Positions 3,242 to 58,859 of a DNA stretch of 64,000 bases are shown here, piece by piece. The stretch comes from an uncultured Hyphomicrobiales bacterium (GTDB lineage: Bacteria > Bacteroidota > Ignavibacteria > Kapaibacteriales > UBA2268). The notes below the pieces were generated by a model, which had not been told where the DNA came from, ran no database searches, and worked only from the letters and a program-made list of their open reading frames with translations. Made by a program: the position numbers and the translations under genes. Location of the stretch: assembly GCA_964498585.1 (NCBI GenBank), contig CAZCHH010000003.1, positions 9,333-73,332 on the forward strand, written 5' to 3'. Every line of letters begins with the position of its first letter. The first letter of the stretch is position 1.

Positions 3242-3565
3242 CATTTGTATTAAAATTCTTACCGATTAATTAATTGAGGATTTCAAAATAAGAGAACTTA
3301 TATTAAGAATATAACTGAACTTAAAAATTCCCTTAATTATTCCATTTTTTACCAGTATTTTTTTCTATATTTATATGAATTCTGTTTCTATTGCAATGAT
3401 TCATTCAATTCAAATACTATTTACATCTTTCATTTTATTATTATTATTAATTATTTCTTTAATAATTTTAATATATTTATTCATTTATTTATTTAACGTA
3501 TAAATTTATTTAGTTATCGTATTGATTTTATTTATTAAAATATATATTCTTTAATTAATTTAATT

Positions 3566-3790
3566 ACTATTTTGATTGATTGAATCACTACTTTGAATAA
3601 TTATATTACTACTTTGATTAATTTAATTACTACTTTGATTAATTTAATTACTACTTTGATTGATTTAATTACTACTTTGATTAATTTAATTATTACTTTG
3701 ATTGATTAAATCACTACTTTGAATAGTTAAATTACTACTTTAAATAGTTAAATTACTACTTTAATTAAATTAATTACTACTTTATATATT
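3566..3790. repeat. tandem array of about 10 copies of a 22-bp unit (attactactttgattaatttaa and variants)
   Basis: Direct reading shows repeated 'attactactttgattaatttaattactactttgattgatttaatt...' with point variants (gattgatt/gattaatt, gaatagttaa). It has no spacers and lies in an 840-bp AT-rich intergenic region. Confidence 0.85.
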
Positions 3791-7556: not shown

Positions 7557-8537
7557 ATGGACAACAATAAAATTCAATTTTTATCTTTTATAATAATAGC
7601 AGTAGTATTTCTGTCGTCCTGTTCTGATAATTGCAATGAACCTACAAAAGAAGAGATAATTGGTTCTTATAAAGCTCATTTAGAAATAGTTGAGACTGTT
7701 ACCAATTCAATAGATGACGGATTGGAGCATATTTTTAATTCAGAAAAATATAAGGATATTAACAAAGTGCAAATAATTCAGGATTATTTAGAAAAAATCC
7801 GTTTTTTCTCTGATAATTCCGGTTATCTTTATTGCTATGATACTACTATGACAAATATAGCTCATCCAATACTTAAAAGCTATATTGGAACAAATCATCT
7901 AAACGACCAGGATGCTAACGGAAAATTCTTTGCTCTCGAAATGCAAGATAGTTTAAGAAAAGCTGGGCAGGGTGTAATTAGTCATTACTGGCTTAATCCG
8001 TCAAGCGGAGTTGATGAAGAAAAAATTGCATACATTAGATTAATTAACAATACCAAATACTTCATCGGTACTGGTTTCTTTAAAAGTTATTTGAAAGAAT
8101 GGAGTATATCAAAACTCGGTTTAAAAATGGAAGTAACACGTAATGCTGTCCAAGCAACTGCTCTTGGGCTTTCATATCTTTTCCAGACCAATTACAATAC
8201 AAAAGGAGAGCAAATTGAGTTTATGAAAACTTATATGGATTCTCTTCGGTTCTATAACGACAATTCAGGATATTTCTTCGTTGACGACACTAATCATTTT
8301 AGTATTGTTTTCCCAACAAGCAAGCACTACGAAGGAACTAGTTTAGTCGATTATCAAGACACAAAAGGGAATTATCCTGTTCGTCAAATGGTTGATATTA
8401 TAAAAAGGAATGGCAAAGGAAATACAGAATATTATTATATTAATCCGAAAAATGGAATTGAACAAAAGAAATTAGTATTTGTTGAAAAAATCAATGGAAC
8501 TGAATTTTTCATTGGTGCAGGAGTGTATGTGGAGTAG
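7557..8537 (+). CDS. lipoprotein with two tandem sCache_2-like extracytoplasmic sensor domains and no output domain
   Basis: Lipobox 'LSSCSD'. Two repeats match the sCache_2 hallmark: 'GYLYCYDTTMTNIAHP...ANGKFF...GQGVISHYWLNPSSGVDEEKIAYIRL...YFIGTGFF' and 'GYFFVDDTNHFSIVFP...TKGNYPVRQM...GKGNTEYYYINPKNGIEQKKLVFVEK...FFIGAGVY'. Confidence 0.75.
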   Translation: MDNNKIQFLSFIIIAVVFLSSCSDNCNEPTKEEIIGSYKAHLEIVETVTNSIDDGLEHIFNSEKYKDINKVQIIQDYLEKIRFFSDNSGYLYCYDTTMTNIAHPILKSYIGTNHLNDQDANGKFFALEMQDSLRKAGQGVISHYWLNPSSGVDEEKIAYIRLINNTKYFIGTGFFKSYLKEWSISKLGLKMEVTRNAVQATALGLSYLFQTNYNTKGEQIEFMKTYMDSLRFYNDNSGYFFVDDTNHFSIVFPTSKHYEGTSLVDYQDTKGNYPVRQMVDIIKRNGKGNTEYYYINPKNGIEQKKLVFVEKINGTEFFIGAGVYVE

Positions 8538-8632
8538 ATTAGAAAGATTAGATAGATTAGAAAGATTAGAAAGATTAGAAAGATTAGATAGATTAGATAG
8601 TTTAGATAGATTAGATAGATTAGAAAATAATT
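8535..8632. repeat. 9-bp microsatellite (GATTAGAWA)x~11 that begins at the stop codon of the Cache lipoprotein gene
   Basis: Sequence 'tagattagaaagattagatagattagaaagattagaaagattagaaagattagatagattagatagtttagatagattagatagattagaaaat'. Confidence 0.85.
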
Positions 8633-8880: not shown

Positions 8881-9270
8881 ATGGAAAAAACATTTCATAA
8901 ATATAGTTTTGAAAACCTTGAAGTATGGCAAATGGCAAAAGATTTTGTTAAAGATATTTATTTACTAACTAATACATTTCCAAATTTTGAGAAGTATTCT
9001 CTTACTAGTCATATAAACAGAGCAGCAATATCAATAGCTTCAAATATTGCTGAAGGCAGTACAAGAACAAATTTTAAAGACCAAGCTAGATTTTCTCAAA
9101 TAGCTTAAGGTTCATTAATGGAAATTCTTTGCCAAATCATTATAGCTAGAGAGTTAAATTATATTAATGATGAAGATTATTATAAATTAAGAAAAAAAAT
9201 TGAAACTATTTCATTTAAAATCAATTCATTGAGAAAATATCAATTAAAGAAAATCACGACTAAACAATGA
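8881..9270 (+). pseudogene. four-helix-bundle protein (23S rRNA intervening-sequence protein family) interrupted by an in-frame TAA at 9106..9108
   Basis: The N-terminal 75 aa ('...NIAEGSTRTNFKDQARFSQIA*') continue in the same frame after the TAA as 'GSLMEILCQIIIARELNYINDEDYYKLRKKIETISFKINSLRKY...'. The family-conserved 'F..IAKGSL.E' motif spans the stop, which sits where Lys is expected. Confidence 0.6.
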
Positions 9271-9328
9271 AATACTAAGCAAAAAAAATCTAAACAAAAA
9301 AAATCTAAACAATGAAAATCTAAACTAT

Positions 9329-10246
9329 ATGAAATTAAAACACATCGTAGAATCGCAACAATTTACAGTTCCATTACTTTTAGAACTGTTTGAACGAACA
9401 AATCAAATGAAAAAAATCGTAGCCCGTGGCGGAACGAGAGATTATCACAATAAAATTATGGCAAATCTCTTTTATCAGCCATCAACACGTACCCGTTTTT
9501 CATTTGAATCAGCAATGTATCGCCTTGGTGGAAGTGTAATCTCTACTGAACAGGCAACTGAATTTTCATCTGAAATAAAAGGTGAAATGCTAGAAGATAC
9601 AATCCAAATTATTTCTAATTATTGTGATGTAATTGTCTTGCGTCATGATGAGGAAGGCGGAGCTAAACGTGCCGCTGCTGTTTCTCCTGTTCCGATTATT
9701 AATGCTGGCGATGGCTCTGGCGGGCAGCATCCTACTCAGGCATTATTAGATTTATACACTATTTTTAATGAATGCCATACTCTTGATGGCTTGTCAGTTG
9801 CTATTATTGGCTCATTAGACCACGGAAGAACTGCACGCTCACTTGCATATCTGTTAAGCAAATTTGACAGAGTAAAGCTTTATTTCATTGCTCCTGATGA
9901 ATTGCAAATTAAGCAGGATATTTTGGAACATCTTGAAGAAAAAAATGTATGGTATCAACTATCAAATACAACTGAAGACATTATTAACAGAGTAAATGTA
10001 GTTTATCAAACCCGCATTCCAAGAGAACGGTTAAAGAATAAAGAACAGGATTTATCAACTTTTAATATTGATTCTACCGTTTTGCAAAAAATGAAATATG
10101 ATTCTATAATAATGCATCCATTACCCCGCTCTGTTGAAATAAATCCAGTAATTGACACTGACCCAAGAGCTGCATACTTCCGTCAGGCACAAAATGGATT
10201 GTATGTGCGTATGGCTTTGCTTACTATGGTTTTTGATGAAGATTAA
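9329..10246 (+). CDS. pyrB: aspartate carbamoyltransferase catalytic subunit
   Basis: 'STRTRFSFE', 'HPTQALLD' and 'HPLPR' motifs. Length 305 aa. Confidence 0.9.
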   Translation: MKLKHIVESQQFTVPLLLELFERTNQMKKIVARGGTRDYHNKIMANLFYQPSTRTRFSFESAMYRLGGSVISTEQATEFSSEIKGEMLEDTIQIISNYCDVIVLRHDEEGGAKRAAAVSPVPIINAGDGSGGQHPTQALLDLYTIFNECHTLDGLSVAIIGSLDHGRTARSLAYLLSKFDRVKLYFIAPDELQIKQDILEHLEEKNVWYQLSNTTEDIINRVNVVYQTRIPRERLKNKEQDLSTFNIDSTVLQKMKYDSIIMHPLPRSVEINPVIDTDPRAAYFRQAQNGLYVRMALLTMVFDED

Positions 10247-14527: not shown

Positions 14528-14574
14528 AGTTAAAAAAAGTAGTATATACTAATTTGTTTTTATATTTAGAATTA

Positions 14575-14900
14575 TTGTCATTTCTAATCACGAGATAAAG
14601 CAATTACTTAATTTAAATTGAAATGACATCGTTAAATCCGTCATTCTGACGTATGTCAAAATCCATCTTATTATTATTCAAAGCTATTCAATTTTAACTA
14701 TTTCATTGAAGCATTTGGGCTTGCACAAATGAAACATGTTAGCAAGCTCACTTGCTTTTCCAATATGGATTCTGGCATACGCCATAATGACAAGAAAAGA
14801 TGTCATTTCTAATCACGAGATAAAGCAATTACTTTATTTAAATTGAAATTACATCGTTAAATGCGCCATTCTGACGTATGTCAGAATCCATCTTTAAAAA
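14575..14900. repeat. two ~97-bp direct repeats (14575..14672 and 14806..14900) flanking further palindromic elements (cattctgacgtatgtcagaatc; ttgggcttgcacaaatg; ggattctggcatacgccataatgac)
   Basis: The two copies are near-identical: 'gtcatttctaatcacgagataaagcaattactt(a/t)atttaaattgaaat(g/t)acatcgttaaat(c/g)cg(t/c)cattctgacgtatgtca(a/g)aatccatctt'. Confidence 0.85.
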
Positions 14901-15121: not shown

Positions 15122-16171
15122 TTATTCATCATCACCTTGGAACCAGGTAACGCTTCTCATATCGTTATTGAAATTGGGATCATTCTTTTTCGAGCTAATT
15201 CTTTTCTTAAGTAATTCGCCGAATTGAGTTGCAGGATTATAACCATATACTCTTAACAAATAATTAAGTGCAATTGCTTCGGCAAGCACAGCTACATTTT
15301 TTCCGGTACTAATAGGTAAAACAATAGTAGGAATTTTTACTCCCATAATATCAGTTAAAGATTCTCTGTCACCGAGCCGTGTATATTCATCTTTTGAATC
15401 CCATTCTTCAAGTTCGACTAAAACTTCAACTCTTTTTTGGAAACGAACAGCTTTAATACCAAACATTTGACGAATATCGATTAATCCAACTCCCCGAATT
15501 TCCATAAAATGCTTTGCTAAATTTGATGAAGTACCCATTATAGTAGTATCACGCTTATTACAAAGGATTACGCTATCATCAGCAACTAACCTGTGTCCTT
15601 TTTCAATCAGCGCCAGAGCTAATTCGCTTTTACCAATGGCTGCTCGTCCGTGAAAAAGAATACCAACGCCAAACACATCAATTAAAGTTCCATGAGCCAC
15701 TTGCTGTGGTGCGAAATAGTCATCTAAATATTCTGATAAAAAAATAAATGTATGATTTGTAGTTTTATCAGTCCTGAAAATTGGCACTTTGTTTTCTTTA
15801 GCTATTTCAATTAGAAAATCATCAAAAGCATTGTTATTTGTTAAAACAATACAAGGAATTTTATTTTCTACTAAAGTTTGAAAAGATTTAATTCTCTTTT
15901 GCTTGGACAAACTATTTAAATAATATACTTCTGTATTGCCGAAAATCTGAACGCAGTTTCGACTATATTTCTCGTAGAAACCAGTTAATGCTAATTGAGG
16001 TCTATACAGACTCTTTTCAGATAAAAGATTATTAAGACCAGCATTTCCGGTTAAGCACTCATAGAACAAAGGTTCTCCTTTTAAGGAATCAATTCTGAGA
16101 GCAGGTTTCTTTATAGTTTCTGCTTTTAGTCTGTTTGACAATGTATCGGCAATATAATTTAAATTTTCCAT
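15122..16171 (-). CDS. hprK: HPr kinase/phosphorylase
   Basis: P-loop region 'FGVGILFHGRAAIGKSELALALIEKGHRLVADD' is the HprK signature. Confidence 0.85.
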   Translation of the reverse strand: MENLNYIADTLSNRLKAETIKKPALRIDSLKGEPLFYECLTGNAGLNNLLSEKSLYRPQLALTGFYEKYSRNCVQIFGNTEVYYLNSLSKQKRIKSFQTLVENKIPCIVLTNNNAFDDFLIEIAKENKVPIFRTDKTTNHTFIFLSEYLDDYFAPQQVAHGTLIDVFGVGILFHGRAAIGKSELALALIEKGHRLVADDSVILCNKRDTTIMGTSSNLAKHFMEIRGVGLIDIRQMFGIKAVRFQKRVEVLVELEEWDSKDEYTRLGDRESLTDIMGVKIPTIVLPISTGKNVAVLAEAIALNYLLRVYGYNPATQFGELLKKRISSKKNDPNFNNDMRSVTWFQGDDE

Positions 16172-16676
16172 CTAAAAACTAAGATAATTAAACATTACTG
16201 AACTTTATTCATTGGGAACAGGGGATGGGTGTTGAATTTGTTTCCGTAGTGAACTTTCAACAGCCATTTTTCTCTTCAATTTCCTTAAGCAATTCGTTAT
16301 AGCATCAAGCATTTGTTGTTTTGTATTTGTAGCGAAAAGTTTTTTTGGTGTAAAATCAGACATATTATTTCCTTTCTAATTAAAATAATATGCAAATTTA
16401 TGAAAAATGTTATAATTTTTTAGGAAATTTTCATATTTAGTAATAAAAGAAAAAATTAAATACGATTTTTTCCAATAAAATTTCGGCTAAAGGAGTTCAA
16501 ATGTTACAATATATTATCACAAATGGGGAAATTATGTTATTATTTCACTTTACGCATTCCCCTTTTGAGAGTAATGGCAGGGAGATAAGCGAATAATTCA
16601 AAATTTTTACATACATAAATATTTATTTAACTTATACAATCTTAAATATAAACTATAATAACTTTAATAATAAGAC

Positions 16677-16776
16677 CTTTTAACACCTCCCCTGCCCCTC
16701 CTTGTAGGAGGGGAATAAGAACTGTCCTGTGTTTTAGCGTTCCCCCTCCTAACAAGGAGGGGAAAGGGGAGGTGTA
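16677..16776. repeat. GC-rich ~100-bp palindromic (cruciform-capable) element, copy 1
   Basis: 'cacctcccctgcccctccttgtaggaggggaataagaactgtcctgtgttttagcgttccccctcctaacaaggaggggaaaggggaggtg'. Outer stem is cacctcccct/aggggaggtg plus two inner hairpins (cccctcc..ggagggg). The overlapping 64-aa ORF 16664..16858 is judged spurious. Confidence 0.8.
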
Positions 16777-17217
16777 TTATTCTTGATTTTAACACTTTAA
16801 TTCTTTTAATTTTTATTATTATTTTACAAATAATTACGACTACTTGGAATTTAAGCAATTATCCATAATAATTAATTTCTTTTCTCTGTGACATTACTCT
16901 TGAGAGGGGAATAAGAAAAGTGGATTAAAAAATGTGAGAAAACTACACTTTTTCATTTCTCAAAAGAGGAATTGCGTAAGGTGAGTTATTATATTTAAAT
17001 GATTTTCGAATAGTAGTCGTCTTATGTATAAATAGGTAATAAAAATAATATGTCCTCAAGCAGTAATTCTGTATTGATATTTTTTACCTTTGTCAGTTTA
17101 TATTATTAGGAAATAAACTTTAATTCATAACGTCAATCTACATTAAACAGAATATTTTTATTTTTAAAGTATCATAACATTCAAATACTAAAGTATTTAT
17201 AAAAATTAAGAACAAAA

Positions 17218-18822
17218 ATGCAAAAATATTTAATTTTAATCCTGTTATTCATATTTTGTTTTGCAAATTCATTATTTCTTCAACCATCTGAAAATGTGCG
17301 AATAATTAATGAACAAACTGCAAAATTTAAAGAAATTTTGGATATTGCAACACAAAATTATGTAGATTCTGTTGATATAAAAAAGATTACAGAAGCTGCT
17401 TTTTCTGCTATGCTTAAAGAACTTGATGATTACTCTAATTATCTTTCAGCTGAGCAATACAAAAGAATTTCTGAAATTAATAAAGGAAAAAGCATCGGTT
17501 TTGGTATTAATGTTGTTCAGATTGAAGATAGTATTATTGTTGCCAATGTTGTAAAAAACAGCTCTGCAGATTCTAATGGAATTGTAATTGGCGACAAAAT
17601 TATTTTCATTGACGATATTAAAACTACCGGGAAAAGTATTCAGGAAATCAATAGTTTATTTAGTGGTCCGAAAGGCAGCCAATCGAAATTTATTATTAAA
17701 AAAAATATTGATGATGAAATTAAGGAACTGCTGCTATATCGAAATGATTGTCAAATAAAATCAGTATATTCTTCTTTCATTATTCCTGAAACAGACATTG
17801 CTTATATAAAAATCAGTTCTTTTTCAAATGAATCTGCTGTTGAGATAAAAGATGTAATTAATAAGCTGATTCAAACTGGAGCAAAAAATCTTTTATTTGA
17901 TTTAAGAAGTAATAATGGCGGTTATTTAGAAAAAGTATTAGAATTGCTTGCCCTGTTCTTCAAAAAAGATGATTTGCTCGTTTATACTGAAGCAAGAAAC
18001 AATAACTATTCAATGAAAAAAGAAGTTGAAAAAGAAGGAGAATTTACTGATATACCTGTTATTGTATTAACAGACAATCATACTGCGTCAGCAGCAGAAA
18101 TCTTTGCTGGTGCTATGCAAGATAACGACAGGGGAATTATTATTGGTGAACTGACTTTTGGTAAAGGGCTTGCTCAGAAAATGTGGGAATTCAAAGATGG
18201 TTCTGCCTTTGCTCTTACTATTGCACGATACTTTACTCCTTCAGGCAGAACTGTTCAAAAGAATGTCCAAAATACTCAAAACCTGATTTTTGATGATTCT
18301 ATTGGATTAGATAAAGAAAAAATTAAGGTATATGAAGATATTTACAAGCGAATTGGCAATCAAAAGAGTTTGCCGATATTTAAAAGTAAAAAAGGCAGAG
18401 ATATAGTTGGTGGTGGTGGAATAATACCCGATGTCGTTGTATTTAACGATTCTTTAACTATGCTTACTCAAGTACTTAAAAGCAGAAGCATATTCTTCGA
18501 ATTTGCACTTCTATTCTTGAAATATAATGGAGAAGAAATTCGTCTTAAATCGTCAAATGATTTTTTAAATTTTGCAAAATACTTTATAGTTGACGACAAT
18601 TTACTATCAAAATTTAGAGAATTTTGCAAAATGAAAAATATCTGGAATGAACAAATGTTTTTAACAGATAAGGATTACATAAGTAATTTTATAAAAGCAG
18701 TAATTTCAAATGTGCTTTGGGGTGATGACGGCTTCTTTTCTGTTAGCATATCCAACGACAAACAAGTGTTAAAAGCAATTTCTTTATTCAAAGATGCAAA
18801 AGAACTTTTGGAGTTAAAATAA
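17218..18822 (+). CDS. S41-family C-terminal processing peptidase
   Basis: PDZ plus an S41 catalytic region 'VLTDNHTASAAEIFAGAMQDNDRGIIIGELTFGKGLAQ'. Confidence 0.85.
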   Translation: MQKYLILILLFIFCFANSLFLQPSENVRIINEQTAKFKEILDIATQNYVDSVDIKKITEAAFSAMLKELDDYSNYLSAEQYKRISEINKGKSIGFGINVVQIEDSIIVANVVKNSSADSNGIVIGDKIIFIDDIKTTGKSIQEINSLFSGPKGSQSKFIIKKNIDDEIKELLLYRNDCQIKSVYSSFIIPETDIAYIKISSFSNESAVEIKDVINKLIQTGAKNLLFDLRSNNGGYLEKVLELLALFFKKDDLLVYTEARNNNYSMKKEVEKEGEFTDIPVIVLTDNHTASAAEIFAGAMQDNDRGIIIGELTFGKGLAQKMWEFKDGSAFALTIARYFTPSGRTVQKNVQNTQNLIFDDSIGLDKEKIKVYEDIYKRIGNQKSLPIFKSKKGRDIVGGGGIIPDVVVFNDSLTMLTQVLKSRSIFFEFALLFLKYNGEEIRLKSSNDFLNFAKYFIVDDNLLSKFREFCKMKNIWNEQMFLTDKDYISNFIKAVISNVLWGDDGFFSVSISNDKQVLKAISLFKDAKELLELK

Positions 18823-19646: not shown

Positions 19647-19742
19647 ATTTTTATTGGATTATAATACCTTGACATATGTCTGTTATTATGAATTCCATAA
19701 TAAAGAAAATATTTTATTTAAATGGAGATGATATAATTTTAT

Positions 19743-19845
19743 ACTGTCATTCTGAGCATCAGCTAAAAATCTACTCAACCATCGAATTAATCCGATAATT
19801 GATATAGAAATATAAGATTCCTCATTTCGTATCGGAATCACAAGA
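19743..19845. repeat. MITE-like repeat element (degenerate copy of the tgtcattctga...gaatcaca family)
   Basis: 'tgtcattctgagcatcagc...gattcctcatttcgtatcggaatcacaag' is related to the elements at 28787, 38481 and 49516. Confidence 0.6.
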
Positions 19846-19870: not shown

Positions 19871-22800
19871 CTAATCCATCTGTAATAATTTATCAATTCT
19901 TTCCATAGTTTGCAAAGTAAATTCTAAAACGTTTATAACATTAATAAAATGCTGCAAATCACCAACAGTTAAAGAATGGTTTAGTTTTTTCCGCTCTGAA
20001 AGCCATTTTTCTAAAACCTGATAGCCACCAACTTTATATTCCCAAATCTCTTTAGGAACATTACTGAAATATCTGTTTTTATTGAAATAAATTCTATTGT
20101 TCTCATATTTTATTGAATCAACTTTAAAATTGTCGGTTTCACCTTCTGAGCGGCAATTCACAGAAACAGGGAATTTCTTTAAAAGATGAGCATTGATCAA
20201 TTCAGTCCCGATATTTGATAGTTCCAAAAACAATTCTTCATTATCAACAAAAGGAACACGCGGAAAATCTATTCTTAAAAATTCATTATATTTTTCTCTG
20301 AAATTTGGGCTGTGCAAAACTGCATAAATATAAGCAAATACCTGCTCCGGTGAATAAGCATTTTTATATTTATTTTTAATGAAATGCCTGAATTCCTTTG
20401 TAAAATTGTCCCTTTTTCCTTCCTGATTAAAAAGGAAATCGTTACCGTTAGAAATATAGTTTTTATCAATATATAAATACAGAGGAAAAAAATTAGTTGA
20501 TTCTTTTGTGAATCCAATATCACCAATAAATTCAGTTACAAAAATATGCTTCCATATATTTGTTTTTATTTGTCTTGGAATTGCAAGTGCAACAGAACCT
20601 TTTAAAATATGCTGCATAACATTAAACCTGTTAGTTCCTGGTTCAATAAAATCAAAATCGTAATATAAAAATCTTTTATCAAAAGGGCGATAATGATAAT
20701 CAATAATTTTTTCTTTGTTAAAATGCCCTTTTTCAAGAACCTTTTTTATTTTCCAATCTCTTGTATCATTTAAACCTAATTCTCTGTTTATTTCACTTTT
20801 ATCTAATTTCAAAAAAGTAGTAATTCTTTTTTCAATTAATTCTTTTTGCAGAGCTATTAAAAACTTGTCCCGATGAGTTTTTACTCCACTTGATTGAATT
20901 TTAAAAATTTCGTCAATTTTATAACCCTTTTTATATTCATCTCTATTAGTCCAATTCTTTTTTACAAAAAAATAAAATTCATCGTTAGGAAAAATTTGAT
21001 TCCATTTTACTGTTCTTAATGAATTGTTCCATAAAAACTCATATTTGCTTTTTTTAGTTCCAAATAAATCATAGTAATTAACAGTGGATTCATTGCTTTT
21101 ATTTGGATTCTTAATAAATAAAGAAATACAAACTCCCTGCATAATTTCAAAAACATTTTCATCTTTTGTTCCATCAGGAGATTTTTCACCGATTCTTGAA
21201 CTACCATGCAGGTTCATAATATAAATTTCATTAAACGTTTTCATCAACTCCAGTCTCATTCCTTTATGAATCAGACCATCAATATATGAATTATTTGATA
21301 TTATCCCTATTACACCGTTTTTTACATTTTCCATTTTCCAATGAGCAAAACGAATAAATTTAATGTAATCGTCTGAAAGTGGTTGAATATTCTTTTCATT
21401 TCTCACTGCTTCTTTATAAGTAATCATTTTTTCATCTGTAATAAAGCCGGCTTTGTTTTGACTGCTAACTGAGTAAGGAGGATTTCCAAGAATAACAAGA
21501 ATATCCTGATTCTTTATTCGGTTTGCTTCTTTACCTTCCTTCGAGAGGGCTGGCATAATTGGAAATGGCTGTGGCTCTTTATTTGTAAGTGTGTTTGTAA
21601 GAAAGATATTTATTCGTTTACTTTCGTCTAAAGAATAGCCAAGTTCTTTGATAAATTCAGTGATTTTTAATTGAGCAACGATATATGGAGCAACAAGTAA
21701 TTCAAATCCATAGAAATTATTAATTATTTGTTCATTTAATATTTTATTTACTGTTTGCCTGTCACCAAGCGTTTGTGCCTGTTCTAATGCAAGTTTGAAA
21801 GCGTTTAAAAGGAAAGTGCCGGTGCCTGTTGCAAAATCAAGCAAAGTAACTTTCTTATTGATTAAGCCATCGCTAAGTCCAAAAGTTACCTTTAAAATCT
21901 CTTCAATAGAACGAACGATAAAAGAAACTACCGGTTCAGGTGTATAATAAACACCTCGCAGTTCTCTTTGCGATTTGTCATAATTTGTAAGGAAATCTTC
22001 ATAAAAATAAATAAATGGGTCGTTGAATCCCTGGTCTTTGTTACGATAATCGGTAAATTCCTTTTTTATTGCAGTATAATCAGTTACTTTTAATATGTTA
22101 ATAATTTCATCTATTGCCCAGGTTATTTCTCTCGGAAAATCATCTAAACGATGGAATAATTCTTTAATTAAAGGAAAAGAATGGGGGAGAAGTGAAAATG
22201 CACTGCTTCTGTTAAGTTGTTTATGTGGTTCATCGCAGTTAAGTGCAGCTAAAAACAAAGAATATGTCAGTGTTTGAGCATAAATATCTGAAAAATATTG
22301 CGTTTCTAAAAGAGGAAGCAGCGATTCTTTGAACACTTCGTAAACTCCCTGCATAAGATTTGTTTCGTCTCTTTCCTTTTCCAATTCAATATAGCAGTAT
22401 TCCCTTAAAAAAGTAGCTTTTTCTGCAAGTTTAAAAGCAAGTGTTTCCACTTTGAAAATCGGCTCCGGCTCTGCTTCAAAAAATTGTTTTAAAAGCCGAG
22501 AAAGTTCTTCTGTTTTACTTTTTGCTAATTTTATTTCCTTTGATTTTAAATCTTCAACAGAGCAGAGTGTAGTATCAAAAACCACATCACCTTTTACAAG
22601 CAGGATAAAACGAAGATAATCAGTAAGAATAATATTATCGGAAAGTTGCTTATAACGTTCAATTTGCTCTGTATTAAGAGTTCTTTCCAAATCGGTGCCT
22701 AATTTTTTCGTTTCAAGCAAACCGATTGTTAATATATTTGGAGTAATTATTTTAAAATCGGGGCGCCCTTTTCCTTCAACCTGTGTTGGCTCGTGCTTAA

Positions 22801-22936
22801 TAATCAACTCACGGCTAATATTTTCACTTAAAAAACGATTAAGCATATTTTGCAAATATGTTCTGTATGAATGTTCCGAACTTTCACTATTCGAGACAAA
22901 CTCCTTTAATATACTATCAATGTATTCTTTAAACAT
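19871..22936 (-). CDS. single-polypeptide Type IIL/IIG restriction-modification enzyme (MmeI-like): N-terminal PD-(D/E)xK nuclease, gamma-class N6-adenine methyltransferase and C-terminal target-recognition region
   Basis: N-terminal 'GRPDFKII...LLETKK' (D..ExK), 'GVYYTPEPVVSFIV', motif I 'LLDFATGTGTFL' and motif IV 'LGNPPYSV'. At 1021 aa it is comparable to MmeI-family enzymes. Confidence 0.65.
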   Translation of the reverse strand: MFKEYIDSILKEFVSNSESSEHSYRTYLQNMLNRFLSENISRELIIKHEPTQVEGKGRPDFKIITPNILTIGLLETKKLGTDLERTLNTEQIERYKQLSDNIILTDYLRFILLVKGDVVFDTTLCSVEDLKSKEIKLAKSKTEELSRLLKQFFEAEPEPIFKVETLAFKLAEKATFLREYCYIELEKERDETNLMQGVYEVFKESLLPLLETQYFSDIYAQTLTYSLFLAALNCDEPHKQLNRSSAFSLLPHSFPLIKELFHRLDDFPREITWAIDEIINILKVTDYTAIKKEFTDYRNKDQGFNDPFIYFYEDFLTNYDKSQRELRGVYYTPEPVVSFIVRSIEEILKVTFGLSDGLINKKVTLLDFATGTGTFLLNAFKLALEQAQTLGDRQTVNKILNEQIINNFYGFELLVAPYIVAQLKITEFIKELGYSLDESKRINIFLTNTLTNKEPQPFPIMPALSKEGKEANRIKNQDILVILGNPPYSVSSQNKAGFITDEKMITYKEAVRNEKNIQPLSDDYIKFIRFAHWKMENVKNGVIGIISNNSYIDGLIHKGMRLELMKTFNEIYIMNLHGSSRIGEKSPDGTKDENVFEIMQGVCISLFIKNPNKSNESTVNYYDLFGTKKSKYEFLWNNSLRTVKWNQIFPNDEFYFFVKKNWTNRDEYKKGYKIDEIFKIQSSGVKTHRDKFLIALQKELIEKRITTFLKLDKSEINRELGLNDTRDWKIKKVLEKGHFNKEKIIDYHYRPFDKRFLYYDFDFIEPGTNRFNVMQHILKGSVALAIPRQIKTNIWKHIFVTEFIGDIGFTKESTNFFPLYLYIDKNYISNGNDFLFNQEGKRDNFTKEFRHFIKNKYKNAYSPEQVFAYIYAVLHSPNFREKYNEFLRIDFPRVPFVDNEELFLELSNIGTELINAHLLKKFPVSVNCRSEGETDNFKVDSIKYENNRIYFNKNRYFSNVPKEIWEYKVGGYQVLEKWLSERKKLNHSLTVGDLQHFINVINVLEFTLQTMERIDKLLQMD

Positions 22937-23052
22937 AGATTATTTTTTACTCAACTTTCATTGTTAATAAAATATAATAAATATAAAGTAGTAGTGCATT
23001 ACAAATAAGAATATGGATTAAAATTCTTAGAAAATACTACTTTAATTAATAA

Positions 23053-23154
23053 AACTTTTTACACCTCCCCTGCCCCTCCTTTTTAGGAGGGGAATAAGAA
23101 CTGTACTGATTTTAAGCGTTCCCCTCCTACCAAGTAGGGGCAGGGGAGGTGTAT
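23053..23154. repeat. GC-rich ~100-bp palindromic element, copy 2
   Basis: 'cacctcccctgcccctcctttttaggaggggaataagaactgtactgattttaagcgttcccctcctaccaagtaggggcaggggaggtg' has a 16-bp outer stem and shares its central sequence with copy 1. Confidence 0.8.
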
Positions 23155-23200
23155 TTTATGCTTTTTATACCAAACCACTAACAATAATGGCAGTATAATC

Positions 23201-23300
23201 TGTCATTCTGAAGCGTAGCGAAGAATCTCACAAGTCATTGCTAATATAGGACTTGATTCTCAGTCATGCTATCAACAAGTTGTTCGCATGACTTAAAATA
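23201..23300. repeat. MITE-like repeat element (tgtcattctgaagcgtagcgaagaatctcacaagtcattg... plus the 'caacaagttgttcgcatgac' palindrome)
   Basis: Shares TIR and core sequence with elements at 28787, 38481, 42300, 58860, 61080 and 63700. The 'caacaagttgttcg(c/t)atgac' part recurs at 54420..54445. Confidence 0.7.
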
Positions 23301-23311: not shown

Positions 23312-24322
23312 TTAAAACTGCACAAATCCCAATTTCTTATACACTTTTCTTAATGTTTTAAAAGCACGTTTTCTTGCTTTTTCTGCACCGGCAGTTAAAA
23401 GTTCCTCTAAATACTTTTTATTATTCATCAAATCAAGATATTTTTCTCTGATTGGCTTAACGTATTCGGCAACGGCATCAGCAACCTCACTTTTGAATAC
23501 GCCATAGCCCTTACCAGCAAATTCCTTTTCAATATCCTCAAAACTCATTTCTTTTGCAATGTGATAAAGCGTCATTAAATTTGAAATGCCCTGCTTTTCT
23601 TCAGACATTTTTACTTCGGAGCCGGAATCGGTTACAGCACGCTTGATTTTGCTTTTTATTTCCTCATCGGTATCGGAAAGGAAAATTGTTGCCTTGTCGT
23701 TATCATCGGATTTCGACATTTTTTTGTTTGGTTCCTGCAAACTCATAATCCTTGCACCGACAGGGGCAATATATGGCTCTGGAACTTTAAAAGTATCGGA
23801 ATAATGGAAATTGAAACGTTGAGCTAAGTTACGGGTTAATTCGAGATGTTGCTTTTGGTCTTCGCCAACCGGCACCAAATCTGCCTGATAGAGCAAAATA
23901 TCGGCTGCCATCAAAACCGGATAGGCAAAAAGTCCAACGTTTATGTTTTCTGCGTGCTGGGCAGATTTATCTTTAAACTGCGTCATTCGGCTACATTCAC
24001 CCATACCGGTAAAGCAATTAAGTACCCATGCAAGCTGGGTGTGCATCGGAACAAATGACTGTATAAATAATGTGCTGATATTTGGGTCAACACCGCAAGC
24101 GATAAAAAGGGCAGCAGTTTCAAGGGTTCTTCGCCTTAATTCTGCCGGATTTTGCTTAACAGTAATTGCGTGTAAATCGACAATAGTGTAAAAACATTCA
24201 TATTCTTGCTGTAGTTTAGCCCAGTTTTTTATTGCTCCCGTTAAATGTCCGATGTGCAGTTTTCCAGAGGGCTGTATTCCACTTAAAATTACTTTTTTTT
24301 CAATTTGATTTTTCTCTTCCAT
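23312..24322 (-). CDS. trpS: tryptophan--tRNA ligase
   Basis: 'GIQPSGKLHIGHLTGAI' (HIGH) and 'KMSKSDDN' (KMSKS). The ORF extends to 24358, but Met13 (MEEKNQIEKKVILSGIQPSG) gives the canonical N-terminus. Confidence 0.85.
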   Translation of the reverse strand: MEEKNQIEKKVILSGIQPSGKLHIGHLTGAIKNWAKLQQEYECFYTIVDLHAITVKQNPAELRRRTLETAALFIACGVDPNISTLFIQSFVPMHTQLAWVLNCFTGMGECSRMTQFKDKSAQHAENINVGLFAYPVLMAADILLYQADLVPVGEDQKQHLELTRNLAQRFNFHYSDTFKVPEPYIAPVGARIMSLQEPNKKMSKSDDNDKATIFLSDTDEEIKSKIKRAVTDSGSEVKMSEEKQGISNLMTLYHIAKEMSFEDIEKEFAGKGYGVFKSEVADAVAEYVKPIREKYLDLMNNKKYLEELLTAGAEKARKRAFKTLRKVYKKLGFVQF

Positions 24323-24418
24323 ATCTTTTCTTATTTTTGTTAAATTAATTCTTTGCAAATTAAATTTTTTATAGTTAATTTCAAAAATTATAGTAATTAT
24401 AATTTAAAAAATACTGAT

Positions 24419-25266: not shown

Positions 25267-25980
25267 ATGAAAGCAAAGATACTTTCAATTCTAATTCTAA
25301 TTTTTGCAGTAACCTATGCAAATTCACAAACTGCTGAAATGATTATCGGCAAGGCAATCAACGCTATTGGAGGCGAAAAATCCTTTAAAAATATTAATTC
25401 TGTTGAATATAATATGACTTTAACAGGTATGGGACAGGAAATGCCTATGAAATTCTATAAAAAAGGTGAAGATAAATTTCGTTTAGAGATGAACTATATG
25501 GGACAAGAAATGATTTCTGTCTTTAATGGAAAATCTGGTTGGACTAAAACTGCTGGAAATGTAATAGAAGTTCCTGAAGTTGCTTTAAATGAGTATAAAG
25601 AACAGTTAAAATCTCAAGTCGCAGCTTTTGATATGCCTTTTCTTAATTATAAGGAAAAAAATATTACCTTTGAATTAATTGGGGAAGAGCCAGTAAATGG
25701 CATAGATGCTTATAAAATTGAAGCTACTTCCGCTGATGGCAATTCTACTCTATATATTGAGAAAGCTACTAATTTACTAATTAAAGCTACTTCAGTTCAA
25801 AACATTAACGGACAAAATATTGAAGCTGATGTATATATGTCTGACTATAAATCAGTTGGTTCATTAAAAATGCCTCATAAAATTGAATTAAAAAGCAATG
25901 GCGAAAATTTAGTTAATATTGTATTAACTTCTTTAAAAATCAACGAAAATATTGATGACAGTTTGTTTCAAAAGCCATAA
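25267..25980 (+). CDS. secreted hypothetical protein (paralog A; same family as 27835..28575)
   Basis: Signal peptide 'ILILIFAVTYANSQTA'. The N-terminus and the C-terminus ('LKINENIDDSLFQKP') are near-identical to the paralog downstream of the E2 gene. Confidence 0.65.
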   Translation: MKAKILSILILIFAVTYANSQTAEMIIGKAINAIGGEKSFKNINSVEYNMTLTGMGQEMPMKFYKKGEDKFRLEMNYMGQEMISVFNGKSGWTKTAGNVIEVPEVALNEYKEQLKSQVAAFDMPFLNYKEKNITFELIGEEPVNGIDAYKIEATSADGNSTLYIEKATNLLIKATSVQNINGQNIEADVYMSDYKSVGSLKMPHKIELKSNGENLVNIVLTSLKINENIDDSLFQKP

Positions 25981-27834: not shown

Positions 27835-28575
27835 ATGAAAAATTTTCTATCATTAATATTTCTAATTTTTGCAGTAACTTATGCAAATTCACAAACCGCT
27901 GATTCAATTATAAGCAAAGCAATAGACGCTATTGGAGGTGAAAACGCTTTGAAAAATATTAATACCATAGAATATAATATGACTTTAACAGGTAAGGGAA
28001 TAGATATGTCTATGATATATATTAAAAAAGCAAATGATAAAATTCGTGTAGAAATTAATACTGATGATGAGAATGTGATTTTTATTATGAATGGAAAAAC
28101 TGGTTGGCTTATTAATTCTGATAAAGTAGATGAAGTAGATGAAGATGATTTAGACGAGCTAAAAAAGCAATATGAAAATCTTATTGGAGTTTTTAATACA
28201 TACGATTACATTAATAAAGAAAAAAATACTACTTTTAAATTAATAGAAGAAGAGCAGGTTAATGGAATAGCTACATATAAGATAGAAGCTACTACTCCAG
28301 ATATAGATTATACTCTATATATTGATAAAGTTACATTTCTGCTTGTTAAAATGAGTACAGTTCGATATATTCATCAACATTTTGATGATAATAATTTTAA
28401 AGAACCAAATTTTTTCGATTTATACTTCTCTGATTATAAATCAGTTGGTTTAATCAAAATGCCTCATAAAGTAGAACAAAAAATAAATGTAGGTGTAGAA
28501 TTAATAACTAATTATGTTTTAAAAAATTTAAAAATTAATGAAAACATTGATGACAGTTTGTTTCAAAAGCCATAA
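27835..28575 (+). CDS. secreted hypothetical protein (paralog B)
   Basis: Signal peptide 'IFLIFAVTYANSQTA' and shared 'EYNMTLTG', 'YKIEAT' and 'LKINENIDDSLFQKP' segments with 25267..25980. Confidence 0.65.
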   Translation: MKNFLSLIFLIFAVTYANSQTADSIISKAIDAIGGENALKNINTIEYNMTLTGKGIDMSMIYIKKANDKIRVEINTDDENVIFIMNGKTGWLINSDKVDEVDEDDLDELKKQYENLIGVFNTYDYINKEKNTTFKLIEEEQVNGIATYKIEATTPDIDYTLYIDKVTFLLVKMSTVRYIHQHFDDNNFKEPNFFDLYFSDYKSVGLIKMPHKVEQKINVGVELITNYVLKNLKINENIDDSLFQKP

Positions 28576-28786
28576 TTTCATAGCTTCTGAATCTAGTGTA
28601 GTGATTTGTTAAAAGACTTACTATCTTGTTCATTCCGAACCCCCTGATAAAAAAGACTTTTATTTAAATAATGATGACATAAAGAGCTATCCCCCGCTGG
28701 CGGGGGACAAAGATGTCATTGGTAATCCCCTTAGAAAGCAAATGCTTTATTTAAATTGAGATGACAAAATTTTATACAGTCATTCT

Positions 28787-28862
28787 GAGCGCTGCGAAGA
28801 ATCCAGAAAAATTTCTTTAATCACTATTCTCTGGATTCTTCACTTCGTTTCGGAATGACAGT
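28787..28862. repeat. MITE-like element with perfect terminal inverted repeats (gtcattctgagcg ... cgtttcggaatgac) and internal inverted repeat (gaagaatccag/ctggattcttc)
   Basis: Direct reading. It is flanked by other family members (28640..28760: 'gatgacataaagagc', 'atgtcattggtaatcc'). Confidence 0.8.
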
Positions 28863-28939
28863 GTAAAGTTTTGTCATTTCCTTTTAAAAAAATCATTTGC
28901 TTTATCTAATTGTTGTAATGACAAAAAAAAGTAATGATT

Positions 28940-36070: not shown

Positions 36071-37174
36071 TTAAGAACCTACCTTATCACAAAATTCAAA
36101 GAATTTATTGCGTTGAGTAAGATAATCGTATTTTTCTAAAGCGTCTTCTCTTGCTTGCTTAGCAAAAACTTTTCTTATATCGGGATTTTTATAATAGAAA
36201 GATAGCAAATCTGCTAAAGTGTTTATATCCTTTTGCCCGAAAATCAGCCCATTTCTTTTATTAGTAATTATTTCCGGAACGCCACCGGAATTTGTTCCAA
36301 TTACGGCAAGCCCGGAAGCCATTGCCTCAATCAGCACTAAACCGAAAGTCTCTGAATTGGAGGGCATAACAAAAACATCAAGGCAGGCAAGCAATTCATT
36401 CACATTTTCGATGAAAGGAATATATTTAAAACTATTTTGAATTTCATTTGCTTCAATTTCTTTCAATAAATTTTCAAAATATTCCTTATCGTCAGCACTA
36501 CCGCATATCACAAGGAAAGAGTTTTGAAGCTTTGCTTTAATGAATGCCTGAGTCAAAATTTGCTGTCCCTTATGCTCTTCTATTCTGCCAATGCATGCGA
36601 TAATGAAACTGTTTTGAGGCAGACCGAATTTTGCACGTAAATCCTGTTTATTATTGTTTTCCGGATTGTATTTTTCAAGTTCAATGCCATAAGGAATAGC
36701 TTTGATTTTTTCTGTTGGGAAAATTGTTGTTTCGCTAAGTTCCTTTTTCATAATGTTTGTAAGGACAATGGCCGAATGAAGATTTTTATATACCCAATTA
36801 TGATAAATGTCTTTTTTGATAAGACCCGACTGCATTTGCTGGTATAATACTATTTTGAATTGCTTTTTGCAAAACTTCCTTGCCAATGCTAAAAGTCCAA
36901 TGCTTTCTGTTTTTCCGACTATGCAAATATCGGTGCTATGTTTGTTAAGGATTTTTGAGATTTTATAAGCAGAAAAAAAATCTAAATATCTAAAATAATT
37001 GGGAATATTTTCGATATTCAAATTATTTTTTTTTGAAAGCAAATCGGCTTTGCTGTCTTTTAAAGTAAAAATAAAGAAAGAATATCCCAAATCGCTGGCA
37101 TCAGTGGCTCTTTTCACCATTTGGATTTCTAAGCCACCGAAGCCGGGATATGCGTTGAAAAAACTAAAATTCAT
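36071..37174 (-). CDS. glycosyltransferase family 4 (GT-B fold)
   Basis: 'EAMASGLAVIGTNSGGVPEII' and 'E.FGLVLIEAM' are typical of GT4 retaining glycosyltransferases. Confidence 0.8.
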   Translation of the reverse strand: MNFSFFNAYPGFGGLEIQMVKRATDASDLGYSFFIFTLKDSKADLLSKKNNLNIENIPNYFRYLDFFSAYKISKILNKHSTDICIVGKTESIGLLALARKFCKKQFKIVLYQQMQSGLIKKDIYHNWVYKNLHSAIVLTNIMKKELSETTIFPTEKIKAIPYGIELEKYNPENNNKQDLRAKFGLPQNSFIIACIGRIEEHKGQQILTQAFIKAKLQNSFLVICGSADDKEYFENLLKEIEANEIQNSFKYIPFIENVNELLACLDVFVMPSNSETFGLVLIEAMASGLAVIGTNSGGVPEIITNKRNGLIFGQKDINTLADLLSFYYKNPDIRKVFAKQAREDALEKYDYLTQRNKFFEFCDKVGS

Positions 37175-37655
37175 ATTTATATTATTAGCAAATTTATCGT
37201 GGTTATTTTACTTATTATAAAACAAATATTATTATATTAACTCACCTTACGCAATTTTATTTTAATATTTTAAACAAGTTAATTTGATGCACTATTTTCT
37301 TTTTAAACCAAGAACCATTACCATCTTTAGAGGGGAATGCGTAAGGTGAGTTACCATCATATTTCAAAAATGTTTAGTTAGTTAAAATATCTCAGAAATT
37401 AAACAATTTATTTGATAATTAAAACCTAAGCTAAGTTGATATGCTTCCTTAAATCTATCATTGATTGCAAATTTATAGTAATCTAATAATAAATATATTT
37501 CAAAATCCTTTTGTAATACTTCCCACTTGCTATCAATATGTTCCACTTGTTTTTTTGCTCTGAAAAGAATACAAAAATTTTGTTTTTAATGCCAGAATAC
37601 TCTTTAAATCTCCTAATGTTAACTTATTATAAATTAAAGATAAATTAGCATTAAT

Positions 37656-38294: not shown

Positions 38295-38480
38295 ACATTA
38301 GCTCCGCTTTTTTTAGCAAATTAGTAATTTCTTCTTAAAATTCAAAAATATTTTAAGCTGTATTGTTCAAATATTCAAAATAAACATATTATTACTCTTT
38401 CCCAAGTTGCACTTGGGAATGTAACTTTCACAAAAGCTATGCTTATACCAAGTTGTTTTTAAAAATATAATATGTTTATT

Positions 38481-38563
38481 TGTCATTCCGATACGAAGTG
38501 AGGAATCTCAAATGTAGTGATAACAAAGATTTGTGAGATTTCTCGCTGCGCTTCGAAATGACA
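38481..38563. repeat. MITE-like element (TIR tgtcattccga/tcgaaatgaca; internal inverted repeat gaggaatctcaaa/tttgtgagatttctc)
   Basis: Direct reading. 'cccaagt(t)gcacttggg' hairpins lie at 38385..38411 and 38645..38673 on either side. Confidence 0.8.
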
Positions 38564-38879
38564 CTTTCATTTTATCTATGAATGCTACTTGGTATTAAAC
38601 TCTTAATTCATAAAAAGAATGTAAAGCACAGATTAAAAAGAAATCTTCCTTCCCAAGTGCAATTTGGGAAGGAGTTCAAAAATTTAAATATTTTTAATTA
38701 AATTGTTTTTTTTCTTGTAAATAAAAAAAAAATTTTGTATTTTAATTTAAGATGAAATAATTAAAAAATTGAATAAATAAATATAATTTCAAGAAGTAAA
38801 ACAACTTACTTTATAGTTTAAAGTGTAGATTCGTAAAGAACTAATTAATAAATTTTCTACAATAAGGAGTTGCTTCATT

Positions 38880-39563: not shown

Positions 39564-39609
39564 AGTTTTATTTAAGTGGTTTTCAAAAAATTTAATTTTG
39601 TTTATCATT

Positions 39610-39830
39610 CTGAACCCCAAAATAAAGAAGACCTTTATTTAAAGGTTGATGACATAACTAAATTTGTGTCATTCTGACGGATGTCAGAATCCATTTTAAA
39701 AATAGTGTTTATAGGTCATTAGTTATTAGTCATTTGTATTTTTACTAACAACTAATGACTGAAAAGAACCATTTTCTTAATTATTTAAGAAAACAAAGAT
39801 GGATTCTGGCATACGCCAGAATGACATACA
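39610..39830. repeat. composite cluster of palindromic repeat elements (ataaagaagacctttatttaaaggttgatgacataa; cattctgacggatgtcagaatc; ggattctggcatacgccagaatgac)
   Basis: The same modules occur at 14640..14800, 45060..45300, 49600..49830 and 61170..61380. Confidence 0.75.
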
Positions 39831-39905
39831 AAGATGTCATTGGTACCAAATTAAAAAATCTCAAATCTTTTAAACAATTAATAAATTTAAATAATAAGGA
39901 AATTT

Positions 39906-42130: not shown

Positions 42131-42504
42131 TTGTCTTGTAATTAATACTTGCACATATTATCCGAAAAAAGTGTTATTCTGAATCCCCTGATAAAGCAAG
42201 TGCTTTATTATAATGGAGATGACATAAGGTTTAGAAAGATTAGATGGTTTAGATAGTATAGGTTTTTAAACTTTCGTAAAGTTTTGCAAGACAAAAGTAA
42301 AGATGTCACTCATAGCCCATCGAAGAATCTCACAAGTCATTGTTACCAAAGAGTTGAGATTTTTCTAATGTAAAAATAAATCAAATATTTTATAAGCAAG
42401 TAACTTCATTAATTTTATGTAAAAACCAGAAAAACCTTTTATCAACTATAAGTTTAATACAATTTTCGTATTTTTGTATTTTTTGAAATAAAAATAAGTA
42501 AATT

Positions 42505-49431: not shown

Positions 49432-49515
49432 AAAATATTTTTAAAAAATTTAATCCACTAATAATATCTACTCAACTTTTCTAGTGTAATAATTCATTAA
49501 AAGACTTACTATTTG

Positions 49516-49830: not shown

Positions 49831-49853
49831 ACTACACCAGGAAAATTGAATTT

Positions 49854-58824: not shown

Positions 58825-58859
58825 TTAGATTTAACAAATTTTTTTAAGTTTTTGCTAAA

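Follow-up and report, generated by a model that had tools for sequence, protein, structure and literature searches.

GC-rich palindromes in a Kapaibacteriales genome as probable cores of a previously undescribed family of miniature transposons

Introduction

Roles as insulators or as stabilizers of mRNA ends have been proposed for repetitive extragenic palindromic (REP) sequences, bacterial interspersed mosaic elements (BIMEs) and Correia elements. Bacterial miniature inverted-repeat transposable elements (MITEs) with names of their own include Correia/NEMIS of Neisseria, ERIC/IRU of enterobacteria, RUP of pneumococcus, Nezha of cyanobacteria and MITECca01 of Cardinium (family definitions: PMC3733652, PMC9769881). 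BoxC, PIT and TMECO are G/C-rich intrastrand triplex motifs (Hoyne & Maher 2000, 2002; Holder et al. 2015, PMC4666352). The Escherichia coli motif forms a triplex in vitro, a structure undetected in vivo, and nuclear magnetic resonance spoke against a G-quadruplex; the motif has neither promoter nor terminator activity, is always intergenic, shows stems conserved above loops and marks hypervariable loci (PMC4666352). No connection between TMECO and mobile elements emerged in the study of Holder et al. (PMC4666352). Here we analyze two GC-rich palindromes in a 64,000-nucleotide stretch of DNA (the window) from an assembly deposited as an uncultured Hyphomicrobiales bacterium and placed by GTDB in the Kapaibacteriales of the Bacteroidota (GCA_964498585.1, contig CAZCHH010000003.1, positions 9,333 to 73,332). 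We conclude, with a probability of roughly 0.85, that the palindromes are the central modules of non-autonomous transposons, i.e. MITEs, with a doublet of triplex-motif units as their core, and not an independent gene or site. The MITE family is previously undescribed, and its terminal repeats match no named family found.

Results

Both palindromes are present on the + strand, with limits refined to 16684–16774 for copy 1 (~91 nt; units and core read from sequence, repeat tests and folding) and 23062–23151 for copy 2 (repeat tests, folding and direct reading). An 18-nt left arm, CACCTCCCCTGCCCCTCC, and a 19-nt core, GGAGGGGAATAAGAACTGT, are exact at both, against a chance expectation from shuffles of 0.00–0.01 in each case. 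A first-pass annotation of the window had described the palindromes as GC-rich elements of about 100 nt. Their composition is indeed distinctive (57% GC in copy 1 and 54% in copy 2 versus 31% for the window), but the extent was set too short: conservation continues for a further ~29 nt upstream and ~75 nt downstream of copy 1, and for 113 nt upstream of copy 2.

Related genomes define the larger unit. A scan for an 18-mer from the core, covering one genome per species, located 25 palindrome copies on 25 contigs of the metagenome-assembled genome (MAG) CAZCLJ01 (GCA_964499465.1; loci L001–L030), two copies in a Candidatus Kapaibacterium MAG (Bacteroidota) and three chance matches; metagenomes hold further copies. 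CAZCLJ01 has 32% GC, genes 77–95% identical to those of the window, and repeat families in common with it. Its title, "uncultured Hyphomicrobiales", is probably wrong, the window genes being of the type found in Bacteroidota and the wider Fibrobacterota-Chlorobiota-Bacteroidota (FCB) group. When loci were anchored on the motif, conservation reached ~140 nt upstream and ~155 nt downstream and then stopped abruptly. The full copies so delimited, which we call family A, measure 287–289 bp, start with ACTCAACTTTCCTAGT and end with its exact reverse complement, ACTAGGAAAGTTGAGT; in most MAG copies these terminal inverted repeats are perfect (16/16). In an intact element of ~289 bp, 16-bp terminal repeats enclose an AT-rich left arm of 99 nt, the palindrome (91 nt) and an AT-rich right arm of 67 nt. 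Target-site duplications of 5 bp, such as TATTT, GAATA, ATAAG, AAGTG, ACCTT and AAATA, are perfect in 9 of 16 full-length copies and match at 4 of 5 positions in three more, and the targets are AT-rich. Outside the elements the DNA is unrelated from locus to locus. The immediate flanks of the palindrome are constant in every family copy, with CCTTTTAA directly before CACC...GGTG and TAT directly after it. All 17 elements surveyed (both window copies and 15 from related loci) lie between genes, whether these are convergent, divergent or in tandem, without positional or orientation preference. Terminal repeats pair in whole-element folds (z −9 to −10), and the elements are non-coding, the only open reading frame (ORF) being one of 64 codons with a TTG start that runs through the palindrome on the − strand.

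A profile built with nhmmer from 12 full MAG copies matches the two palindrome loci in the window and nothing else there. The copy 2 element occupies 22949–23167 on the + strand (219 nt; family A model positions 1–221, E=1.1e-56) and represents the left three-quarters of family A. It keeps the left terminal repeat (ACTCAACTTTCATTGT, 22949–22964, +; 14/16 match by terminal-repeat search), the left arm and the palindrome, whereas ~68 nt at the right end, the second terminal repeat among them, have been lost, and another repeat family lies next (23197–23256; D11/D16). Its target duplication cannot be scored because the right end is lost. Copy 2 is thus a right-truncated MITE relic. On the left it ends 12 nt upstream of the start codon (ATG, 22936) of a restriction-modification gene, and the 5' region of that gene is therefore transposon-derived.

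Copy 1 has a more complex anatomy. Its family A segment, 16655–16849 on the + strand (195 nt; model positions 86–280, E=3.9e-49), comprises the palindrome and right arm, with a degenerate A-type right terminal repeat at ~16840–16857 (+); the family A left arm is absent. The carrier belongs to a second type of MITE, family B, and is a 444-bp composite (16543–16986) with ~37-nt terminal repeats beginning ACTCACCTTACGCA. It is bounded by TATTA at 16538–16542 and by an identical target-site duplication at 16987–16991. The left terminal repeat, TTTCACTTTACGCATTCCCCTTTTGAGAGTAATGGCA (16543–16579, +), contains three mismatches and is complementary to the right one (16890–16986, −), which is divided into 16890–16912 and 16973–16986 by a 60-nt insert; the ends pair in the whole-element fold. 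The insert (16913–16972) forms a hairpin of its own in that fold and is flanked by GAGGGGAAT and GAGGAAT. Its first letters, AAGAAAAGTGGATT, are similar to the beginning of the palindrome core that follows GGAGGGGAAT (AAGAACTGT), and related sequence was seen at the same position in L025 and L012. Composites of the copy 1 type also occur in L012 and L025 of the MAG and in L115 from another metagenome; as the composite stands at several loci, it has been copied as a unit. Copy 1 is accordingly a chimera in which palindrome and right arm sit inside a family B MITE, and the composite has been copied to at least four loci. Family B ends bound elements in L012, L025, L115, L022 and L001, and 5-bp duplications flank other family B elements, e.g. 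AATTA on both sides in L022.

Two further elements in the window have the same terminal repeats. The first, at 37240–37351, is a mini-MITE of 112 bp made mostly of two family B repeats (ACTCACCTTACGCA ... TGCGTAAGGTGAGT) without a palindrome. It is the source of the second of two "partial relatives" that had been noted at 16900–16990 and 37320–37345. Both are true repeats, but they are terminal inverted repeats of the carrier transposon and not degenerate palindromes. The second element, 49470–49851 (382 bp; ACTCAACTTTTCTAGT ... ACCAGGAAAATTGAAT), has family A-type ends and carries other repeat modules (internal families D3, D12, D13 and D16) in place of the GC-rich palindrome; the same ends therefore mobilize different cargo. 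Conversely, MITEs of two types, each with its own terminal repeats, have the GC-rich core in common.

Each half of the palindrome is a ~30-nt unit of three domains, CCTCCCC-TG-CCCCTCC-loop-GGAGGGG (C-tract, linker, mirrored C-tract, loop, G-tract). On the opposite strand this reads CCCCTCC-(5–6 nt)-GGAGGGG-(2–3 nt)-GGGGAGG, so that the left unit lies on the − strand and the right unit on the + strand, and in the window palindrome two units face each other as an inverted doublet across a 28-nt core. In copy 1 (+ strand coordinates) the left unit comprises CCTCCCC at 16686–16692, TG, CCCCTCC at 16695–16701, a loop at 16702–16706 and GGAGGGG at 16707–16713. It is followed by the core (16714–16741) and by the right unit, with CCCCTCC at 16743–16749, a loop at 16750–16755, GGAGGGG at 16756–16762, AAA, and GGGGAGG at 16766–16772. 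The left unit of copy 2 is made up of CCTCCCC (23064–23070), TG, CCCCTCC (23073–23079), a loop (23080–23085) and GGAGGGG (23086–23092), and the right unit of CCCCTCC (23121–23127), a loop (23128–23133), GTAGGGG (23134–23140), CA and GGGGAGG (23143–23149), likewise on the + strand. The inner CCCCTCC-loop-GGAGGGG hairpins and the shared core are as first described, with one mismatch in the right hairpin of copy 2 (GTAGGGG).

The units contain three consecutive domains with loops of 1–6 nt, which is the definition of an intrastrand triplex motif in PMC4666352, and match the class II/IV architecture of that study. On antiparallel fold-back, isomorphic triads number 7/7 in three of the four window units, and one mismatch occurs in the copy 2 right unit. 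The G-rich strand CCCCTCC-loop-GGAGGGG-CA-GGGGAGG can, judging by base order, form six G.G-C triads and one A.A-T triad, a class II purine motif; 5'-CCCCTCCTAACAAGGAGGGGAAAGGGGAGG-3' is the candidate triplex-forming unit. The folding tools we used consider Watson-Crick pairs only. A G-quadruplex reading of GGAGGGGCAGGGGAGG would have only two Gs to draw on in the outer tracts of this family.

The unit is not confined to the MITE. A metagenome scan with a pattern for the left half (CTCCCCTGCCCCTCC-N4-8-GGAGGGG) returned at least 120 loci, and among the matches listed about four belong to the MITE family. The other listed loci range from 27 to 70% GC, have unrelated flanks and carry the same ~33-nt unit, either alone, in tandem arrays or in head-to-head or tail-to-tail pairs. 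One 66% GC contig with the unit encodes a CoxL protein 88–89% identical to proteins of a Candidatus Dormibacteraeota/Chloroflexi MAG, which tentatively suggests an origin in a different phylum. Among further hairpins of the same type in the listed loci, collected without requiring a third domain, a third mirrored tract was present on exactly one side in 74 of 87 and the control arrangement in 0 of 87.

As RNA, the palindromes fold at −62 to −66 kcal/mol on either strand (z ~−9), values equaled by 0 of 200 shuffles; as single-stranded DNA they are predicted to form a hairpin of −31 to −33 kcal/mol, against −60 to −66 kcal/mol for RNA. The fold proposed earlier, an outer stem enclosing two inner hairpins, can be drawn, but the optimum for a single strand is one long imperfect hairpin that is better by 16–18 kcal/mol, and RNA and DNA parameters gave the same preference. 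Compensatory change was sought in 17 distinct palindromes, a set of low power whose stems hardly vary. For the three-way fold, 0 of 25 pairs showed such change and 21 were invariant. For the long hairpin, 27 of 33 pairs were invariant and a single pair changed on both sides, a result matched by 474 of 500 shuffles; this pair, the only one seen as both G-C and A-U, is mismatched in 12 of the 17 copies. A search of the whole window against Rfam 15 yielded no match at gathering thresholds, and at E<=10 both loci gave generic long-hairpin (miRNA-precursor-like) matches and nothing else.

Conservation of sequence beyond the needs of pairing, which the first-pass annotation had stressed, was borne out, with a conserved core common to the copies. 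The copies are not merely young and identical, as loops and core differ among the 17 distinct palindromes. With columns fixed by the search patterns left out, 2 of 39 GC stem columns are variable compared with 16 of 34 in loops, bulge and core (Fisher p=3e-5). Because stem columns vary far less than loops and core, something must preserve the stem sequence. Candidate causes are a preference for intact stems in the competition among lineages of the element, correction templated by the hairpin, and a role at the level of the host.

The palindrome itself is a site of insertion. At 2697–4208 of L022 in CAZCLJ01, a 1.5-kb insertion sequence (IS) with an IS4/Tn5-like transposase and ends CTAATCWTGTAGCWTAAAA splits the palindrome; it has its own terminal repeats and a 9–10-bp duplication of the hairpin loop. 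Homologues of this IS (42–86% identical) were read at eight further metagenome sites. Counting L022, the IS lies between the 5' C-tract and the 3' G-tract, i.e. in the hairpin loop, at eight of nine independent sites (L022, L164, L165, L166, L167, L168, L170 and L171 are those listed). Both flanks were tested at seven sites, six of which fit, compared with 0.66% of random positions (binomial p ~6e-13, or ~1e-10 without the discovery case). No end of this IS was found in the window. Collectively, these sites look like target specificity of the IS for hairpins of the C-tract/G-tract class, which could help explain the instability of triplex-motif loci.

Other junctions were also noted in the right half of the palindrome. 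At L016 (~7520) and L020 (~50) the palindrome is cut at the same point of the right loop, directly after cctaacaa, and continues with (A/G)GCTAACGATTATACACAAATATT before the loci diverge; the shared breakpoint may mark the terminus of a further IS or MITE, a relative of the IS that targets the loop. In two MAG copies (L013 and L025; L012 is also listed), a third small element whose ends read CAGGGCTGATACGTTC...GAACGTATCAGCCCTG lies in or beside the palindrome's G-rich right arm.

The gene neighbors first assigned to the two copies were correct by Pfam. Copy 1 stands between divergent genes for HprK (15122–16171, −) and an S41 peptidase (17218–18822, +). Copy 2 lies between the stop of trpS, encoding a class-I Trp/Tyr tRNA synthetase (23312–24358, −), and the start of the gene for an MmeI/Type ISP-like restriction-modification enzyme (19871–22936, −), both genes being on the − strand. 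The window is an ordinary chromosomal region of an FCB-group bacterium, with a type IX secretion system (T9SS) sorting domain among its products, and Pfam detected no transposase or REP-associated tyrosine transposase (RAYT) encoded in it.

Many intergenic regions of the window are mosaics of other dispersed, mostly palindromic repeat families, for example GTCATTCTGACGGATGTCAGAATCC and TGTCATTCYGA..CG.AGYGARGAATCTCACAAG, that are common to the related MAG. Such regions lie at 14572–14894, 19677–19757, 23197–23256, 28622–28905, 38377–38692, 39596–39869, 42168–42348, 45052–45298, 49517–49828, 58859–59037, 61076–61393 and 63631–63783, and the genome looks unusually rich in small repeats. Tandem arrays were found at 3432–3783, 8535–8626, 9260–9335 and 52634–52795. 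In one array, which is intergenic and upstream of 3964, a 21-nt unit recurs ~11 times; in another, 10 copies of a 9-nt unit (AGATTAGAA) start at the stop codon of a Cache-domain ORF; others have units of 15 nt (one) and 7 nt (two). Paralogous ORFs at 25267–25980 and 27835–28575 (families D6 and D8; ~75–79% DNA identity), one of them LolA-like, flank a gene for a 2-oxoacid dehydrogenase E2. The GT4 glycosyltransferase gene at 36238–37196 is 95% identical to L005 4–962, compared with 77–83% for other shared genes, and may be a recent horizontal transfer.

Discussion

The first-pass annotation had left the choice between a functional RNA or protein-binding site and a selfish palindrome. Our results, stem pairs that are mostly invariant and show no covariation, favor a selfish repeat, but one in which the palindrome itself is not the mobile unit. 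Because the elements combine terminal repeats with a fixed-length duplication, the MITE would be mobilized in trans by a DDE-type transposase that recognizes ACTCAACTTTCCTAGT. We give about even odds to the idea that the core acts as DNA-level structural cargo, snapping into a hairpin when single-stranded. It would be kept intact in those element lineages that keep multiplying. To the host, the insert is probably neutral or mildly disruptive intergenic DNA, although it may block or process read-through transcripts, e.g. between trpS and the restriction-modification gene. For a hairpin-loop-specific IS, the palindrome would offer a landing pad.

Several observations sit less comfortably with a MITE origin. 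Near-invariant G/C stems in an AT-rich genome amount to a constraint that selfish cargo alone leaves unaccounted for. The left linker TG (window 16693–16694; alignment columns 19–20) is invariant in 17 of 17 distinct copies, and the right linker (16763–16765; columns 90–92) varies among CA, AAA, TAA, TTA, AA and CCA. An autonomous IS with matching terminal repeats was found neither in the window (Pfam, 40 ORFs) nor in the ~1 Mb of loci retrieved, and collections of plasmids, phages and viruses likewise yielded none. A 1.8-kb element in L022 was considered as the autonomous parent and rejected, as its transposase belongs to a separate IS with its own repeats, CTAACCTTGTAGCTTAAAA, and a 9–10-bp duplication. 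An empty site was found for neither of the two copies: L031, the one strain close to the window (99.5% identity in this region), also has copy 1, the single syntenic comparison of MAG and window (L001) cannot be aligned in the intergenic region, and look-ups of the exact TrpS, restriction-modification enzyme and peptidase proteins produced no further strains for comparison. MAG copies were collected by the exact core 18-mer, such that diverged or core-less relatives are under-sampled. Plasmid, phage and viral collections contained no match to either MITE; isolated viral matches to the terminal-repeat 16-mer and the 18-nt left arm have no partner repeat or palindrome and are most likely chance. 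A literature search for the arm sequence returned no bacterial matches.

These gaps must be set against what other explanations would have to accommodate. A structured small RNA gene, or a cis-regulatory RNA whose function depends on its fold, would fit the very stable predicted structure (z ~−9), the greater conservation of stems than loops and the core sequence common to the copies. A palindromic element, however, folds equally well on both strands, and the 17 distinct copies are without compensatory change (a test of low power where stems are near-invariant). Rfam provides no match at gathering thresholds, sigma-70 and terminator scans gave no promoter or terminator signal above shuffles, and the copies occur in every orientation and gene context, each inside an element bounded by terminal repeats and target duplications. 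We regard an RNA as highly improbable. A leader sequestering the Shine-Dalgarno sequence was also tried and discarded: among the matches listed, the unit precedes a long ORF in 16 of 129 cases (12.4%) versus 12.4% at random sites. That the hairpins are a simple Rho-independent terminator duplicated by chance might be thought from their GC richness and from the position of copy 2, 160 nt downstream of trpS on the transcribed strand. The annotation had already doubted this, and rightly: neither strand carries a T-run (the 3' flanks are TATTATTC and TATTTTAT), terminator calls number zero at both loci, and copy 1 is located in a divergent promoter region. A 91-nt element of ~−64 kcal/mol with a 28-nt conserved core far exceeds terminator dimensions, and there are 25 near-identical MAG copies with terminal repeats and target duplications. 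The missing U-tract and the transposon anatomy refute a terminator for practical purposes.

Two other proposals concern the DNA rather than a transcript. The palindrome could be a REP doublet forming a hairpin (REPIN), mobilized in its own right by a RAYT and found inside other repeats by accident. It does consist of two inverted ~30-nt hairpin units with a 28-nt spacer that together make one long hairpin, and in other lineages the unit is found singly, in tandem arrays and in head-to-head or tail-to-tail pairs, just like REPs and BIMEs. But flanks and MITE arms are constant in every family copy, and the palindrome was never seen moving alone. Moreover, HUH transposition produces no target duplication, and 5-bp target duplications are present here. 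Neither the family consensus nor 129 units from other lineages, among the matches listed, contain the GTAG or CGTC tag of REP units (PMC3733652). The window encodes no Y1 transposase domain, and tblastn with an E. coli RayT sequence, a weak test, found no match in ~1 Mb of loci. A REPIN is thus very unlikely. The remaining proposal is compatible with a MITE origin: a structural element exapted by the host as a bidirectional transcription insulator, as an mRNA-end stabilizer or as a non-B DNA site (triplex or cruciform) with effects on replication or recombination, and kept by host selection. Stems are conserved above loops and core (p=3e-5) although AT-biased mutation should erode G/C stems, copy 2 occupies a sensible insulator site between the trpS stop and the restriction-modification start, and BoxC-type motifs fold as triplexes in vitro and mark hypervariable E. 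coli loci (PMC4666352). On the other hand, an insulator would serve no evident purpose between the divergent genes around copy 1, MITE copies lack positional or orientation preference, and E. coli PIT elements have shown no promoter or terminator activity and no in vivo triplex (PMC4666352). Multiplication of intact master copies alone would account for the stem conservation equally well. Host exaptation is therefore on balance unlikely, and we retain the palindromes as MITE cores.

Assignment to a MITE removes a candidate RNA gene from the annotation of this genome and covers with one explanation both palindromes, the "partial relatives" and the other two window elements that have these terminal repeats. 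It also links three separate literatures, those on MITEs, on REP/REPIN-like doublets and on BoxC/PIT "triplex motifs". To our knowledge, the origin and spread of BoxC/PIT-class motifs have been unexplained since the 1990s. New in relation to earlier triplex-motif work is a triplex-motif doublet that travels inside a transposon with target-site duplications, and one IS family strikes hairpins of this class time and again. A wider proposal, which we consider doubtful but worth stating, is that MITE transposition is one route by which G/C-rich intrastrand-triplex motifs are scattered, and that the motifs serve as landing pads for IS4-family elements. In a stronger form, the near-invariant C/G stems may be kept because single-strand hairpin or triplex folding is needed for transposition or protein recognition. 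If true, IS landing pads would provide a mechanistic reason for rearrangement hot spots at triplex-motif loci (Holder 2015). If the proposal holds in complete genomes, both the spread of triplex motifs and the instability of their loci become testable.

Comparison with described systems places the element between these literatures. IS1397 and ISKpn1 (IS3 family), and IS110/IS1111 members in Pseudomonas REPs, are REP-loop-specific insertion sequences. Like IS1397 and ISKpn1, the IS4-family element sits in the loops of repeat hairpins; unlike them, it is IS4/Tn5-like, makes 9–10-bp duplications and has a triplex-motif type of hairpin as its target. With REPINs, REPs and BIMEs the palindrome shares the inverted doublet of short GC-rich hairpins, whereas the tag, the RAYT and autonomous movement of the doublet were not found here. 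Like BoxC/PIT, the unit has the order C-tract, loop, G-tract, short loop and mirrored G-tract, with loops of 5–6 nt and 2–3 nt, is strictly intergenic without strand bias, has stems conserved above loops and is present in many unrelated bacteria. The TMECO consensus, CCCTCNCCC-N3-6-GGGNGAGGG-N3-GGGNGAGGG, is proteobacterial. Because the window unit differs from it in sequence and has stems of 7 nt instead of 9 nt, the unit, as read from its sequence, falls within the BoxC/PIT architectural class but outside the E. coli TMECO/BoxC family. As in other bacterial MITEs, a non-coding element of ~290 bp has terminal inverted repeats, a fixed-length duplication and many dispersed intergenic copies, adopts a long hairpin when single-stranded, and occurs in subfamilies and chimeras. 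What sets it apart from the named MITEs is a 54–57% GC center in a 31% GC genome, built of two units of the triplex-motif type, and what sets it apart from TMECO is that these units are paired as an inverted doublet and lie within a transposon bounded by terminal repeats and target duplications.

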